4,795 nucleotides of DNA from a virus (taxonomy: Duplodnaviria > Heunggongvirae > Uroviricota > Caudoviricetes). Below, piece after piece: positions 1 through 4,795 of the stretch. The notes under the pieces are model-generated. The model saw only the letters and a program-made list of their open reading frames with translations, was not told the origin of the DNA and did not search any database. Made by a program: the position numbers and the translations under genes. The first letter of the stretch is position 1; each line of letters opens with the position of its first letter. The stretch is from IMG/VR virus record IMGVR_UViG_2645727555_000023, one strand, 5' to 3'.

Positions 1-85
1 CCATATAACCACCTGAAAGACAATGACATTGCCTGTTTTTATAACGGTAATTGCAGACCATGACAAGCCGCAGCCGTCAGGCTGC

Positions 86-178
86 CTACTCGGTAGAAAT
101 CAGCGACGGAACCAGTAAACCGTAGATGAGAGCCACTGAAAGGCCTGTGGCTACTGCCAATAGATAGATTTTGATCAT
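86..178 (-). CDS. Putative small hydrophobic peptide, 30 aa (MIKIYLLAVATGLSVALIYGLLVPSLISTE), probable single transmembrane helix
   Basis: Hand translation of the minus strand: ATG at 178-176, TAG stop at 88-86. AGGA Shine-Dalgarno at about 184-187, 5 nt upstream of the ATG. Not in the supplied ORF track (too short). Composition is almost entirely hydrophobic. No homolog recognised. Confidence 0.3.
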   Translation of the reverse strand: MIKIYLLAVATGLSVALIYGLLVPSLISTE

Positions 179-207
179 GTGTTTTCCTATGTGGTTGTTA
201 TGTGAAA

Positions 208-236
208 ATAATAAGTAAGTACTTATATATTTTCAA
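208..236 (-). promoter_or_regulatory. Candidate sigma70-type promoter (TTGAAA - 17 bp - TATTAT) reading toward the small peptide ORF
   Basis: On the minus strand: TTGAAA (236-231), 17-nt spacer, TATTAT (213-208); each hexamer is 5/6 to consensus. Lies directly after the recA terminator T-run and about 30 nt upstream of the peptide ATG. AT-rich context makes chance matches possible. Confidence 0.3.
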
Positions 237-240
237 GAGA

Positions 241-266
241 TAAAAAAGGCGTCCTGTGGACGCCTT
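241..266 (-). terminator. Rho-independent terminator downstream of the recombinase gene
   Basis: Minus-strand sequence right after the TAA stop (273-271): AAGGCGTCC-ACA-GGACGCCTT (9-bp GC-rich stem, 246-266) followed by TTTTTTA (247-241). On the plus strand it is preceded by an A-run and followed by T-rich TTGTGTTT, so it may act bidirectionally. Confidence 0.6.
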
Positions 267-270
267 GTGT

Positions 271-2610
271 TTACTCTTCTACTGACTCGGTGGGGTTGTC
301 TTTTGCTCTTCGGTCGTCGATTGCCTGCAAAGCCGCAATGATTTCAGCCAGTGGCTTCTCCCGATACATCTCGACGATCTGTGATTTGGTGTATTTCTTG
401 TCACCAATTTCAACTCGCCCGCTGGCGTTCTTTGGCAGGTATCCTTCATCCAGCATGTACTCGACGAGCGATTCGATAACGTCGAGGCCACGAGTAGGAT
501 CGAAGTAGAATTTCCAGGTGCATTTGCCATACGGTGGTGCAACTTTGTTTTTGATGCATTCTGCGCCTACGTCTTGGCCGATCTTCTCTTTACCATCCTT
601 CATCACCGATGCACCAAGACGGATACGTACAGAAGCGTAGAACTTCGGTGAATCTCCACCTGGCGACGTAGTAGGGTCGCCAAACATTACACCGATTTTT
701 GTGCGAACCTGATTCAAGAAGATGATGCAGGCGTTGTATTTGCGTGCCCACAAAGCCAGAGTAGGGAAGTTCGCACTCGTCGCACGAGCCAGTGCCGTAT
801 TGTCGTTCATGTTTAGCTGATCTTTGTCTTTGGCTGTGCCTTCAGCCATCTTTTCGAACTTCTCGGCTTTGGAGTTCGGAACCATAGACGCAAGAGAGTC
901 AGCCACGATACAGATTGGTGCTGATTCGGGGATAAGCTCTTCATCACGAACCAATTTAAGTATTGTGCCGATCAACTCTACAGAGTCTTCGAAGGTATCT
1001 GGCTGCTTGTATACCCACTGACCGTCATCCTCATCTGCGTTCAGGCCATTGGCTACAGCCAGGCCAACGTCAAAACTGTTTTCATGATCGAGGAATACCG
1101 CCAGACCATCTTGTTTTTGAGCGGAGATCATCGCTGCTGTTGCAAGGAATGTGTTGTGGCTGATAATCCCGTTAGACCAGAAAGAGTGTGTTTCCGGCAT
1201 CGCTACGTCGAACGTTGGTGCTTCACCTTCCTCAATAGCCACGACTTCGTCGTAGAACAAGTTAGAGCCAATTACCGCTGCCAGTTGTGCAAACAGATGC
1301 TCGTTAAAACGATTCTTTCTGCCAATGAAGGAGACATAGATTTCTCGCAGTTTGTCTATTCCGACACGATCGCCGCGGCCAATAACGTGGTCTACCAGAG
1401 CGTAGTCTTCACGGGTGGTCTTGGTGAGCGACTCGTAGAGTGATTTCACTAAGCCGCTGATGTGCGGAACATAGCCTGAGTAAGTGCGGTCAAAACCAAT
1501 GTCCCGTTTGGTTGCCACTGATAAACGTGCCGGAGATTCGAAACCAATCGTTGACAGAAAAAGGTCGTAATTAGAGCCACTGAATGACAGCCGGTAATAT
1601 GTATTTTCATAACCCGCGACGTGTTTTTCAGAGATAGTTGACGTAATCCCCAGATTCAGGAGCATGAGGCGAATTTGCTGTAGCAGCAGCCCACTCGCGC
1701 TTACAACCTCAATGCAGCGACCATCATTGACGTGGCATTCCAGCTCAAAGTAGCCGCGAAGGAATGCAATTTGAGCCTCGCTATTGGCGCGACGCACACT
1801 CAACGGAACCTGCTTGCCAGCAGCTTTCTCATACTCCAGACCATATTCTTTAAAAAGCAGCGAACGCACCTCTTTGCTAAACAGCACATGGTCTTCCGAG
1901 CCGTTATGTTTTCTCGTAACTGGCATCTTGTCTGATACCAGCGAAATGAGGCGGTAGTACTCATCCTTGATGAAAGGATCTGTGTTAGAAAAATTCACTG
2001 AATTTTCAGAGGCCACGTATCCGTCAGCAATTAAATAGCCCATCAGTTTTGCGATATTGGCATCCAGGTGCTGATCGCCGAATTGATGTGTGCCAACCAT
2101 TGAAGGAATCGTGTCGCCTACACTGATTTTTTCAGCATGTCGCCAGACGACATTACCTAAGTCGTCAACCACACGGATTGGGTGACGGAACGTAGCCTCG
2201 ATATAACCGCCTGATGCCAGCTTAATACGCTTGAATTTGCGACGGTTGTTCCATGTCAGGTGTGAGGTCTTCTCTATCACGCCATTTTCATTGATGAGTC
2301 CAACGTTATGCTCTACATCGCGAGTAGTGCATGTCGCTTTGTACCCTTCAATCTCAAACAACTCTTTCACTGTTACCATTCCACGCTCCGTCAGCAGCAT
2401 GGTGTCTGCGGTAACACATTTCCCCGCGCTTGGAGGACCGAATACTTCGACGATACGACCACATGGGAAGCCGCCATCGTAACGACCAGAAATAGCTTTG
2501 TTTAACGGTGGAAAGCCTGTATCAATCCAATGAGTTACTTTCTGAATTTCGTCGTTGCTACCGATTTTCTTTTTCAGAGCAAGTGCCAGTGCGGATTTTC
2601 CTTTTGCCAT
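271..2610 (-). CDS. recA: RecA-family recombinase precursor (779 aa) containing a 422-aa intein; predicted spliced product 357 aa
   Basis: Exteins align to bacterial RecA hallmarks: N-extein GRIVEVFGPPSAGK + C-extein TFLATAAMI rebuilds Walker A GPPSAGKT (RecA GPESSGKT); Walker B-like ICIVADSLASMVP; L2-loop region FLNQVRTKIGVMFGDPTTSPGGDSPKFYASVR closely matches RecA [32 protein letters not shown]. ATG at 2610 is preceded by AAAAGGAG 7 nt upstream. Symbol denotes RecA family; a phage-encoded homolog is likely. Confidence 0.9.
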   Translation of the reverse strand: MAKGKSALALALKKKIGSNDEIQKVTHWIDTGFPPLNKAISGRYDGGFPCGRIVEVFGPPSAGKCVTADTMLLTERGMVTVKELFEIEGYKATCTTRDVEHNVGLINENGVIEKTSHLTWNNRRKFKRIKLASGGYIEATFRHPIRVVDDLGNVVWRHAEKISVGDTIPSMVGTHQFGDQHLDANIAKLMGYLIADGYVASENSVNFSNTDPFIKDEYYRLISLVSDKMPVTRKHNGSEDHVLFSKEVRSLLFKEYGLEYEKAAGKQVPLSVRRANSEAQIAFLRGYFELECHVNDGRCIEVVSASGLLLQQIRLMLLNLGITSTISEKHVAGYENTYYRLSFSGSNYDLFLSTIGFESPARLSVATKRDIGFDRTYSGYVPHISGLVKSLYESLTKTTREDYALVDHVIGRGDRVGIDKLREIYVSFIGRKNRFNEHLFAQLAAVIGSNLFYDEVVAIEEGEAPTFDVAMPETHSFWSNGIISHNTFLATAAMISAQKQDGLAVFLDHENSFDVGLAVANGLNADEDDGQWVYKQPDTFEDSVELIGTILKLVRDEELIPESAPICIVADSLASMVPNSKAEKFEKMAEGTAKDKDQLNMNDNTALARATSANFPTLALWARKYNACIIFLNQVRTKIGVMFGDPTTSPGGDSPKFYASVRIRLGASVMKDGKEKIGQDVGAECIKNKVAPPYGKCTWKFYFDPTRGLDVIESLVEYMLDEGYLPKNASGRVEIGDKKYTKSQIVEMYREKPLAEIIAALQAIDDRRAKDNPTESVEE
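1153..2418 (-). mobile_element. Intein (422 aa) with LAGLIDADG homing-endonuclease domain, inserted in the recombinase P-loop between Lys64 and Thr(+1)
   Basis: Starts with Cys (TGT at 2418-2416) in a block-A-like CVTADTMLLTERG. Block B TFRHPIRVV (TxxH). Two LAGLIDADG motifs: LMGYLIADG (2046-2020) and LRGYFELEC (1761-1735). Blocks F/G TFDVAMPETHSFWSNGIISHN end in His-Asn (AAC at 1155-1153) followed by Thr +1. Removing it restores a contiguous 357-aa RecA. Confidence 0.85.
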
Positions 2611-2612
2611 GA

Positions 2613-2879
2613 TCAGGCTCCTTTTGTTTCGTTGATTCGTTTTACAGCGGCGGATTCATCGAATACAATCGCATCGTGGTTAAGGAGTCTGGATACACGA
2701 GCGAGGATTTTTACGACCTGCTCGCTGACTAATCCAAACTCGCGATCTGTCGCTTTCATTCCGGCAGCGCCTAGAATTGACGGCAGTGCGATGACAGCGT
2801 ACTCACCGTGATAAAAGACAATCTCTTTTGCCAGTTGGGCAGGGGTGGTTGTAGCGCCATTGATAATCGATTTAAGCAT
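2613..2879 (-). CDS. Hypothetical small protein (~88 aa), translationally coupled between the exonuclease and recombinase genes
   Basis: ORF track gives 2613..2885 from a TTG. The in-frame ATG at 2879-2877 overlaps the exonuclease TAA stop (2881-2879) as TAATG and is the more likely start. No recognisable motif; function unknown. Confidence 0.55.
   Translation of the reverse strand: MLKSIINGATTTPAQLAKEIVFYHGEYAVIALPSILGAAGMKATDREFGLVSEQVVKILARVSRLLNHDAIVFDESAAVKRINETKGA
2618..2624 (-). promoter_or_regulatory. Shine-Dalgarno (AAAAGGAG) for the recombinase gene, embedded in the 3' end of the upstream small ORF
   Basis: Minus-strand AAAAGGAG lies 7 nt upstream of ATG 2610 and overlaps the last codons (K-G-A) of the upstream ORF, whose TGA stop (2615-2613) sits 2 nt before the ATG: translational coupling. 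Confidence 0.6.
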
Positions 2880-3823
2880 TAGCAATACCTTTCGAATGGA
2901 AGAACAAACACTTCAAGGTCTTCAAGGAACGAACGGAAATTCAGCTCGTAGCACAGTTGCTCGAATGCTTTCACGTCACGATTGCCTTTGATTGTTTCGA
3001 TTTCGGTAGGCGGAAACTTCGTCTCAATCAGGTTCATTAGCGTGATGTTTCTCTTGAACGCTTCGAGCATTCGACAGCCTGTTTTCTCGTTGAAGGCATT
3101 CTTCGCTAGTTTGTTGAAGGCGGTCTTATGGCGTCCTTTGTCAACCACGATTGAGCCGTCGTTGATGCCGCGTACCATCGTTGCGACACTTCCCCATTCA
3201 TGCAGCAGCTCTTTCGCACCGCCAGCACCAATGCCACCAACACCGCTAATGTTGTCCGATTTATCGCCTTGTAATGCTTTTGCTTCCAAAAATGCGCGAG
3301 GAGTAGCGAATCCTGTCAGCTCCGCAAATTGCTCAAAATTAACCTGCTTGTTTTTGGCGTCTTCGCGCAGGCTTACCCAGCTTACGTTTTCGCGAACTAA
3401 CTGAAGCCAGTCGCTATCGCCTGTTAACAGATAGATGTGTTCAACGGTTGGCTGCGGTGCCATGCGGGATACCAGCAGCCCGGCCAGATCATCCGCTTCT
3501 GCATCTTTTGCAATGAGTTGGGTAACTCCAAGCGCGGTCATCATTTTGAGGATGTATGGCTTCTGGATAGCAAAGCCTTCCTTCATCTTTTTCATATCAG
3601 GATCGTCGTCGCGATTTGCTTTGTAGTCCGGGTAAAAGTCGCGACGCTTGTCACTAAATCCATCCCAAAGAATCATAGGTCGGGCATGGAGGATGGAGGC
3701 ATAACGACGGACGTTCTTAACAAAGCCGAAAGCAGCCTGTACTTCCATTTCGCCGTTGTGCAATTTGTCAGATTGTTGGTGGTAATAACCCAGGCTATTG
3801 CCATCTACGAAGAGATAATTCAC
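2879..3823 (-). CDS. 5'-3' exonuclease / flap endonuclease (FEN family, Pol I 5'-nuclease-like)
   Basis: N-terminal motif NYLFVDGNSLGYY (compare Pol I 5'-nuclease LILVDGSSYLYRAYHA), acidic cluster LLTGDSDWLQLV, and H3TH motif ALQGDKSDNISGVGGIGAGGAKELLHEWGS (compare Taq ALTGDESDNLPGVKGIGEKTARKLLEEWGS). ORF track starts at GTG 3874; the in-frame GTG at 3823-3821 with GGAAGGAA SD 8 nt upstream is preferred because codons 2-12 of the longer ORF are the terminator hairpin and T-run. Stop TAA at 2881-2879. Confidence 0.85.
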   Translation of the reverse strand: MNYLFVDGNSLGYYHQQSDKLHNGEMEVQAAFGFVKNVRRYASILHARPMILWDGFSDKRRDFYPDYKANRDDDPDMKKMKEGFAIQKPYILKMMTALGVTQLIAKDAEADDLAGLLVSRMAPQPTVEHIYLLTGDSDWLQLVRENVSWVSLREDAKNKQVNFEQFAELTGFATPRAFLEAKALQGDKSDNISGVGGIGAGGAKELLHEWGSVATMVRGINDGSIVVDKGRHKTAFNKLAKNAFNEKTGCRMLEAFKRNITLMNLIETKFPPTEIETIKGNRDVKAFEQLCYELNFRSFLEDLEVFVLPFERYC

Positions 3824-3838
3824 CGGTACATTCCTTCC

Positions 3839-3867
3839 AAAAAGTAAGGCGTCCGTAGACGCCTTAC
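3839..3867 (-). terminator. Rho-independent terminator or attenuator between the SSB-like gene and the exonuclease gene
   Basis: Minus strand, 17 nt after the SSB-like TAA stop: GTAAGGCGTC-TACG-GACGCCTTAC (10-bp stem, 3867-3844) followed by TTTTT (3843-3839), then the SD and GTG of the exonuclease. Stem arms AAGGCGTC/GACGCCTT are identical to those of the terminator at 246-266. Confidence 0.55.
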
Positions 3868-3883
3868 TGGTCACGTAATGGGA

Positions 3884-4651
3884 TTACAGAGAGTCCAGTT
3901 CTCTCAGTAGGTCATCCAGACCTTCATCTTCCGTCGCAGATGCGGTTGCTACAGATGTCGCTGCTACTGCTTCAGACTCTTTGACTGATACGGCAACGGC
4001 AGCGGAACTTGCTTCTGGTTTAAATTCAGTTTCAACGGCACGGAGGATTTCTTCATCAACCAGACTGGTTGGTTCAGAAGCTGGGGTGTGAGCGGTTGCT
4101 ACAGCAGTCGCACCCTCCGTATGACCAGTGACAGAGCCAAATCCAGGCAGTGCCGCGGCCGATGTTTTCGCGGTAGAGGAAATTGCTGGTGCAGATGCTG
4201 CGGCAGTTGGTGCAGCGATGCCAATCAGACGACCCATAGTGCGAACTGTCGACAGAAGACGAGTTTCATCAGCCTGATTTGCGTATGCGATCAGATCATG
4301 CTGGGTGTTCCAGAATTTATCTTCGATATCGCCTTTGTAGACTTTACGCTTAGGCGAGACGTCATATTTGGTATCGCGACCAGAACCAGTACGTTTAATC
4401 AGGAATGCGTAGCCTTCCTCTTTGCTCAGTGGATTGCCGATATCATCAGCGATGTCTTCGGTGATTGCTTTGCAGATATCATCGAATACAGTAGACGGCA
4501 GCTCGATTAACTGGCATTTCTCAGCATCTGCGAAATCCTCACGAGCAGAAAGAATGCCGTTGACCAGGTAGCGAGGAGTGGCACGCATTTGACCGATGCG
4601 TTCTTCCATTGCTTTGTTACCCTTGTGACGAGCGCGACCTTCCATAACCAT
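3884..4651 (-). CDS. Putative ssDNA-binding protein (gp32-like features), probably a 3' fragment of a gene disrupted by the adjacent IS element
   Basis: Long Ala/Ser/Thr-rich low-complexity linker ending in acidic tail EDEGLDDLLRELDSL, typical of SSB C-termini. The frame stays open upstream of the first ATG up to the IS boundary (4701) and encodes C-x8-C-x2-C (YICEQHTHGRACQLCEM), reminiscent of the T4 gp32 zinc site. No Shine-Dalgarno precedes ATG 4651 or 4645. Functional call is motif-level only. Confidence 0.5.
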   Translation of the reverse strand: MVMEGRARHKGNKAMEERIGQMRATPRYLVNGILSAREDFADAEKCQLIELPSTVFDDICKAITEDIADDIGNPLSKEEGYAFLIKRTGSGRDTKYDVSPKRKVYKGDIEDKFWNTQHDLIAYANQADETRLLSTVRTMGRLIGIAAPTAAASAPAISSTAKTSAAALPGFGSVTGHTEGATAVATAHTPASEPTSLVDEEILRAVETEFKPEASSAAVAVSVKESEAVAATSVATASATEDEGLDDLLRELDSL

Positions 4652-4701
4652 TTCGCATAGCTGACAAGCGCGACCGTGAGTATGTTGCTCACAAATATAA
4701 G

Positions 4702-4795
4702 TGAACCGCCCCGGGAATCCTGGAGACTAAACTTCCTGAGAAAGAGGTAAACAGGATGACTAAAAATACTCGTTTTTCCCCTGAAGTCCGTCAAC
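4702..4795 (+). mobile_element. Left end of an IS3-family insertion sequence (IS629/IS1203-like), continuing beyond the window
   Basis: Sequence begins TGAACCGCCCCGGG at 4702 (IS3-family termini start 5'-TG). It is followed by GAGG SD and an ATG at 4756 opening an ORF MTKNTRFSPEVRQ..., which matches from memory the N-terminus of IS629-group OrfA transposases. Exact IS identity is unverified. Confidence 0.7.
4756..4795 (+). CDS. IS3-family transposase OrfA, N-terminal 13 codons (partial, runs off window)
   Basis: ATG at 4756-4758 with GAGGT 7 nt upstream; translation MTKNTRFSPEVRQ. Recognition is from recalled IS629/IS1203 OrfA sequence. Confidence 0.7.
   Translation, partial: MTKNTRFSPEVRQ

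Follow-up and report, generated by a model that had tools for sequence, protein, structure and literature searches.

Analysis of a 4,795-nucleotide stretch of DNA (referred to here as the window) revealed the 3' remnant of a gene whose intact product is, with little doubt, a divergent T4 gp32-family single-stranded DNA-binding protein (SSB); the copy in the window has been cut at codon 71 by an IS3-family element and is very probably a pseudogene. The window constitutes an entire draft contig (DF970385.1, assembly GCA_001297725.1) and ends within the insertion sequence (IS). Its open frame extends over 3887-4699 of the minus strand (271 codons), with the stop codon at 3884-3886, and retains the 3' four-fifths of a gene of 342 codons (residues 72-342 of the 342-aa protein). 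Read from 4795 to 3884, the remnant frame includes ...FTYICEQHTHGRACQLCEMVMEG... and terminates in ...EDEGLDDLLRELDSL followed by the stop. An initial sequence-only reading of this DNA had proposed a gp32-type SSB from the architecture of the product, namely a C-x8-C-x2-C motif, a low-complexity linker and an acidic tip. All three elements were recovered on the minus strand where that reading had placed them. The span that it had given to the gene (3884-4701) holds for the stop and the frame; however, 4701 is the junction with the IS and not the gene start, and the IS-cut gene is probably dead.

Table 1. Features located in the 4,795-nucleotide window, with residues numbered as in the intact 342-aa protein.
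Feature	Position	Strand	Evidence or context
RecA, 779 aa, PF00154, with intein	271-2610	(-)	Same strand as the SSB remnant
88-aa ORF, conserved	2613-2879	(-)	Separates the FEN gene from the RecA gene; overlap with the FEN stop codon
5'-3' exonuclease/FEN, PF02739 + PF01367	2879-3823	(-)	Downstream of the SSB remnant, same strand
Terminator-like hairpin, 10-bp GC-rich stem, 4-nt loop, U5	3839..3867	(-)	Between the SSB stop and the FEN start
gp32-family SSB gene, 3' remnant (codons 72-342 + stop)	3884..4701	(-)	Pfam PF08804, PHROG 1192
Longest ORF with a start codon, 255 aa from Met88	3884..4651	(-)	Begins downstream of all three cysteines
Acidic C-terminal tip EDEGLDDLLRELDSL	3887..3931	(-)	Likeness to the T4 tip; AF2 helix 332-341
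Ala/Ser/Thr/Val-rich flexible linker, residues 232-327	3932..4219	(-)	Composition, AF2 pLDDT
Conserved linker island 2, SLVDEEILRAVETEFK, residues 283-298	4019..4066	(-)	Predicted amphipathic acidic helix; alignment
Conserved linker island 1, LPGFGSVTGH, residues 255-264	4121..4150	(-)	Alignment of relatives
Retained part of the putative ssDNA-binding core, residues 72-231	4220..4699	(-)	Pfam match to profile positions 43-208 of 208; AF2
Cys74-x8-Cys83-x2-Cys86, three of four putative zinc ligands	4655..4693	(-)	Align with T4 gp32 Cys77/Cys87/Cys90
IS3-family element, left terminal inverted repeat + orfA start (ATG at 4755)	4702..4795	(+)	

Positions 89-4701 of the window share approximately 99% identity with a block conserved among E. 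coli plasmids of 105-113 kb. At the protein level, tblastn over query residues 1-299 demonstrated 99.7-100% identity in Escherichia phages Cyrano, PhiR41_1 and CMS-2020a, and 88% identity to the protein of Salmonella phage SSU5 across the same aligned residues. Phage-plasmids of the SSU5/pHCM2 group have been defined previously (PMC7969092). Membership is marked by high nucleotide identity to SSU5-type elements (approximately 100-112 kb) and by a gene order conserved with them, and both were found for the host of this gene. Because of the DNA identity to the plasmid block and the protein identities to the phages, the host element is, as judged from its sequence, a SSU5/pHCM2-type phage-plasmid of E. 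coli. In an intact relative (L001) the SSB gene occupies 6796-7824 of the minus strand with 342 codons, and the intact gene is preceded by a leader of 117 nt and a strong ribosome-binding site (AAGGAG). The gene order of the intact elements (a hypothetical gene, SSB, FEN, the 88-aa ORF, and RecA with an intein) is the same in the relatives of the window, and dnaE, encoding the Pol III alpha subunit, is located approximately 2.5 kb upstream of the SSB gene in the intact elements. The FEN nuclease and RecA that had been named as neighbours are confirmed by their matches to PF02739 plus PF01367 and to PF00154, respectively, downstream and on the same strand. The contig is bounded by IS elements at both ends. 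Its left end (window 1-94, approximately) is an IS21-family terminus, IS100-like and adjoining istB in matching records, and interrupts the 66-aa ORF found ahead of the SPFH gene in intact elements.

Assignment of the protein to the gp32 family is carried by profile searches. The intact homologue matched Pfam PF08804 ('gp32 DNA binding protein like') with 224.7 bits (E=1.7e-66, profile positions 1-208 of 208) and the window fragment matched it with 183.6 bits (E=6.4e-54, positions 43-208 of 208), both scores exceeding the gathering score of 26.8 bits. PHROG 1192 ('single strand DNA binding protein') was likewise matched by the intact protein (E=1e-115) and by the fragment (E=1e-84). An exhaustive HMMER search returned 577 representative relatives at E<=0.001. 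When a family profile made from an alignment of 120 sequences (A1) was compared with the PDB, it matched T4 gp32 (8GME, E=2.7e-10), RB69 gp32 (2A1K and 2ATQ) and the T4 core (1GPC), and no PDB sequences other than gp32; an hhalign comparison of A1 with T4 gp32 gave a probability of 97.4%. Similarity of single sequences was far lower. Pairwise BLASTP against T4 gp32 was not significant (E=0.064), and a phmmer search of the PDB with the intact protein as the single query returned nothing at E<=1, so that a profile was required. Since neither of these similarities is significant, the core had gone unrecognised in the sequence-only reading, whose remark that the central region lacks an obvious match to a named OB-fold family agrees with the BLASTP value and with a structure-based identity of 17-18%. 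No match to the bacterial SSB family PF00436 was obtained at E<=1 in the Pfam search, and NCBIfam release 20 gave no meaningful match (only VPA1262_fam, E=0.12), although PGAP uses the gp32 name. The fragment's PF08804 score and the PHROG 1192 match bear out the call made from architecture, and among the families recovered by profile search only those of gp32 and SSB were strong. An architecture-only call can thus correctly recognise a gp32-type SSB even when pairwise comparison with T4 detects no similarity.

Names in public records are divided. The E. coli plasmid protein WP_001717300.1 is named 'T4-gp32 family ssDNA-binding protein' in RefSeq, phage Cyrano carries the annotation 'SSB T4 gp32-like', and the SSU5 RefSeq record reads 'single strand DNA binding protein'. 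Dozens of NCBI records name close homologues 'regulator', and 'putative regulatory protein' and 'hypothetical protein' are also in use. These names would suit a protein that is primarily a gene regulator rather than a replication and recombination SSB, as would the fact that T4 gp32 represses translation of its own mRNA. Neither Pfam nor NCBIfam produced a match to any regulator family, the strong matches being those to gp32 and SSB families, and no helix-turn-helix or similar domain was found. The newest PGAP name is that of a T4-gp32 family ssDNA-binding protein, and autoregulation would come as a by-product of binding ssDNA or RNA and would be no alternative to the SSB role. A primarily regulatory function is therefore very improbable, and we retain the gp32-type SSB as the reading of the intact protein. 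The gene family is already recognised in public databases, many records of which still name the SSB 'regulator' or 'hypothetical protein'; a literature search found no paper specifically on the gp32-like SSB of SSU5. The additions made here are the clade-specific tail motifs and the IS disruption.

Structure prediction was consistent with the profile searches. An AlphaFold2 (AF2) model of the intact homologue, computed from A1, had a mean pLDDT of 84.3 (more than 95 over residues 30-230) and comprised an N-terminal helix (3-21), a mixed beta/alpha core, a helix at 284-294 and a C-terminal helix at 332-341. A low-confidence segment was evident at about 241-280, where 10-residue block means of pLDDT were 42-51. 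Foldseek comparison of the model with the PDB gave six matches at E<=0.001, all of them gp32 chains (2A1K, 1GPC, 8GME and 2ATQ), with a probability of 1.00, TM scores of 0.53-0.63 (target-normalised), 17-18% identity and rmsd values of 5-6 A; the seventh match had E=0.28. The intact homologue is accordingly modelled with the gp32 core fold, the OB-type ssDNA-binding domain as in 1GPC. The N-terminal segment of the intact protein, with its predicted helix and a net charge of +2, lacks the KRKST motif, and the whole segment is missing from the window. Points against the gp32 reading are the pairwise E value of 0.064, the moderate structural match, the absence of KRKST and the older 'regulator' names.

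The cysteine motif had been described as zinc-ribbon-like. Here the prediction sustained the OB-type core, with gp32 chains as the only structural matches, and an alignment supplied a candidate metal site; that site is not a zinc ribbon. In both the HMM alignment to 8GME and the hhalign comparison, His56, Cys74, Cys83 and Cys86 align with T4 His64, Cys77, Cys87 and Cys90. The histidine is present in all sequences of A1 (120/120) and the three cysteines in nearly all (Cys74 117/120, Cys83 118/120, Cys86 114/120), while His77 and His79, which lie near the cysteines, are not conserved in A1. Because His56 and the three cysteines are conserved and the nearby histidines are not, the motif is best described from the alignment as a putative gp32 His+3Cys zinc subdomain. 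The fourth putative ligand, His56, is 18 residues upstream of the first cysteine and falls in the part deleted from the window. The three cysteine codons are retained, at 4691-4693 (Cys74), 4664-4666 (Cys83) and 4655-4657 (Cys86).

The tail of the protein (residues 232-342) has a net charge of -12 and low pLDDT. Its linker (residues 232-327) had been estimated at about 100 residues of low complexity, which fits the 96 residues counted, 65% of them A/S/T/V, with a net charge of -6; the estimate overlooked two conserved motifs that the linker holds. Both the length and the sequence of the linker vary among 25 relatives down to approximately 40% identity, whereas two islands are conserved. The first, with the consensus LPGFGS(V/I)TGH, is present in the SSU5-like clade down to approximately 40% identity, and the second, SL(V/I)DEE(I/V)xRAxEAEF, is present across the 25 relatives and overlaps the AF2 helix at 284-294 (pLDDT about 77). 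The tip, EDEGLDDLLRELDSL, comprises the last 15 residues and has a net charge of -6. T4 gp32, as read from the T4 record, ends in ...SSSSADDTDLDDLLNDL / ...DDTDLDDLLNDL, with DLDDLLNDL at its C-terminus. The protein studied here ends in ...TEDEGLDDLLRELDSL, in which GLDDLLRELDSL is comparable to the T4 DLDDLLNDL; its extreme C-terminus (...LRELDSL) is not of the DDDIPF type. A hydrophobic-[DE]-x-hydrophobic-hydrophobic pattern occurs within the last 25 residues of 87 of the 120 relatives as against 5.1 expected from shuffled tails, a 17-fold excess, and these last 25 residues have a mean net charge of -7. The sequence and the model thus point to an acidic, predicted disordered C-terminal domain with a LDDLL-type tip, as in the gp32 family.

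That the acidic tail recruits partner proteins, as had been stated for T4 gp32, proved a simplification. The Dda helicase binds mainly a helical peptide of T4 gp32 (residues 248-270) upstream of the acidic end, and the acidic end itself (271-301) binds Dda weakly and may act on the DNA-binding function of gp32 itself (PMC11551737). By analogy, the position of island 2 resembles that of the Dda-binding helix 248-270, and partner docking would be assigned to the helix at 283-298 rather than to the LDDLL tip, for which self-gating would be the likelier role. A more speculative extension, which we hold only tentatively and consider rather less likely to be right than wrong, is that the long tail of this clade is a modular docking platform in which three independently conserved motifs (LPGFGSVTGH, the SLVDEEILRAxExEF helix and LDDLL) could each recruit a different enzyme out of FEN, RecA and DnaE, although LDDLL may instead serve a universal gp32 self-interaction (cleft gating) and not partner binding. 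LDDLL may serve such a self-interaction because it has been kept from T4 to SSU5 even though the cores are only about 18% identical.

Aligned with an intact copy, the window shows a single mismatch as far as 4701, whereas its sequence from 4702 on (TGAACCGCCCCGGGAATCC...) is unrelated. Homology breaks off exactly where the terminal inverted repeat of the IS (TGAACCGCCCC...) has its first base. The 98-nt end displayed 100% identity to elements annotated 'IS3 family transposase', found at up to 50 places per E. coli genome, and the element at 4702 is presumably IS629-like. Lost together with codons 1-71 are the leader, the ribosome-binding site, the N-terminal helix, His56 and four strands of the core (AF2 elements E32-38, E50-53, E55-61 and E67-73), so the retained core lacks its first four beta-strands. 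As the contig ends inside the IS, the 71 codons of the 5' end beyond it, or an intact second copy, would lie outside its reach. Alternatively, faulty assembly at the edge of a short draft contig might have produced the junction, the gene being intact in the real genome. Such an artefact would be in keeping with a window that is a whole contig with repeat (IS) ends on both sides, and with an exact-junction search that found no record of the SSB/IS junction in complete E. coli genomes or PLSDB plasmids. A break exactly at the first base of the terminal inverted repeat, however, fits transposition and is unexpected for a chimeric join. In addition, an identical 255-aa ORF is present in two other assemblies, whose contigs end inside the gene 14-25 nt from the same point and without the IS. 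We consider an artefact most unlikely and treat the truncation by the IS3-family element as real.

The truncated copy of the SSB gene is very probably a non-functional pseudogene, as inferred from the IS truncation: its start region is gone, no start codon (ATG, GTG or TTG) precedes Met88 (ATG at 4651) in frame after the upstream stop, a promoter scan found no promoter-like or sigma-70-like site upstream of the remnant on the minus strand, and the transposase gene points away from it. An uninterrupted ORF of 255 aa with an ATG does remain, and its product would keep the conserved tail motifs, so that a functional protein might still be made from Met88 through read-through or a promoter directed outward from the IS end. 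Such a product would have neither the N-terminal helix nor four of the core beta-strands nor any of the four putative zinc ligands, and zinc is required for the fold stability and cooperativity of T4 gp32. Inspection of the sequence 5' of the Met88 ATG showed no visible Shine-Dalgarno sequence, which together with the missing promoter-like site and the orientation of the transposase gene argues against expression. The chance of a functional Met88 product is slight, and the pseudogene remains our interpretation of the window copy.

A working scheme for the intact 342-aa protein can be drawn by analogy with T4 gp32. The protein would consist of the N-terminal helix 3-21, a core of approximately 200 residues and an acidic, largely disordered tail of approximately 110 residues. 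The core would bind ssDNA and be stabilised by a zinc site of His56, Cys74, Cys83 and Cys86, and the N-terminal helix would confer cooperative binding. In this manner the protein would coat ssDNA during replication and recombination of the phage-plasmid, and through its tail it would gate the cleft in which it binds DNA, recruit partner enzymes and hand over ssDNA to them. Its partners are likely to be FEN and RecA, whose genes lie directly downstream, and the DnaE polymerase of the element itself. Thus we infer ssDNA binding, cooperativity and partner recruitment for the intact protein, and non-expression for the remnant.

Comparison with known systems places the SSU5-type protein nearest to gp32 of T4 (1GPC, 8GME) and RB69 (2A1K), members of PF08804. 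The predicted three-part layout of N-terminal helix, zinc-stabilised core and acidic disordered C-terminal domain is common to them, the putative His and three Cys ligands align column by column, the C-terminal LDDLL is common to the T4 protein and this one, and both genes sit among replication and recombination genes. Differences are equally apparent. Core identity to T4 and RB69 gp32 is only 17-18%, with a BLAST comparison that is not significant and a TM score of about 0.6. The tail has 111 residues and is rich in Ala/Ser/Thr/Val, compared to about 50 residues in T4 gp32 (counted from sequence); the LPGFG..TGH and SLVDEEILRA motifs are clade-specific; and the basic KRKST-bearing segment of T4 gp32 (residues 1-21) has no KRKST equivalent here. 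The host is a temperate siphovirus-type phage-plasmid with DnaE, FEN and a true RecA, whereas T4 uses gp43 and UvsX. The SSBs of SSU5 and Cyrano and WP_001717300.1 (PHROG 1192) are the same gene, with 88-100% identity over query residues 1-299. In contrast to them, the window copy lacks codons 1-71, and its element is additionally IS21-cut at the other contig end. Bacterial SSB (PF00436) and T7 gp2.5-type proteins follow the same logic, in which an ssDNA-binding core is joined by a flexible linker to an acidic tip that acts as interaction hub and self-inhibitor. The tip is DDDIPF in E. coli SSB as opposed to LDDLL here, and the present protein has a putative zinc site.

The replication/recombination module of the phage-plasmid in GCA_001297725.1 has been broken by insertion sequences, and for this reason the element is probably decaying. 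The practical value of the finding is small; the conserved tail motifs offer a modest, testable lead on the assembly of DnaE, FEN and RecA on ssDNA in SSU5-type phage-plasmids. Other damaged forms of the gene were encountered in public assemblies. In four of them (P0053, P0071, P0072 and P0073) a gp32-like N-terminal part is fused in frame to a RecA C-terminal part, with four different break points; these fusions are either recurrent deletions, in which FEN and the intein-bearing part of recA were lost, or assembly artefacts. In P0082 and P0084, SSB residues 1-75 are joined to a short Ala/Ser stretch and a LDDLL tip, the core after the first cysteine being deleted. Further frameshifted or truncated forms include P0077, P0079, P0080, P0089, P0093 and P0113, among many. 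Damage to the SSB gene is evidently frequent among sequenced isolates.

Several minor observations concern the neighbouring genes and the RNA level. The 88-aa ORF has no Pfam match on record. The RecA intein carries a LAGLIDADG homing endonuclease (PF14890, PF14528), and the PGAP name for the whole recA gene is 'LAGLIDADG family homing endonuclease' only, by which RecA is hidden. Direct folding of the hairpin between the SSB and FEN genes gave an RNA fold of -22.2 kcal/mol (z = -3.75); a consensus terminator scan did not list it. The same scan found a hairpin after recA (246-266, minus strand). The two hairpins, one following the SSB gene and the other recA, have a common stem core (AAGGCGTC/GACGCCTT), loops of 4 and 3 nt, respectively, and a subsequent U-run. 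In an Rfam scan, neither the window nor the leader of the intact gene matched a known RNA element, and nothing resembling the T4 autoregulatory structure was recognised. Elsewhere in the intact relative L001, a full-length cspA thermoregulator RNA (RF01766, 185.7 bits) is located at 9628-10046 on the plus strand; it precedes a plasmid-borne cspG, and among intact phage-plasmid relatives this thermoregulator and cspG lie near the replication module.
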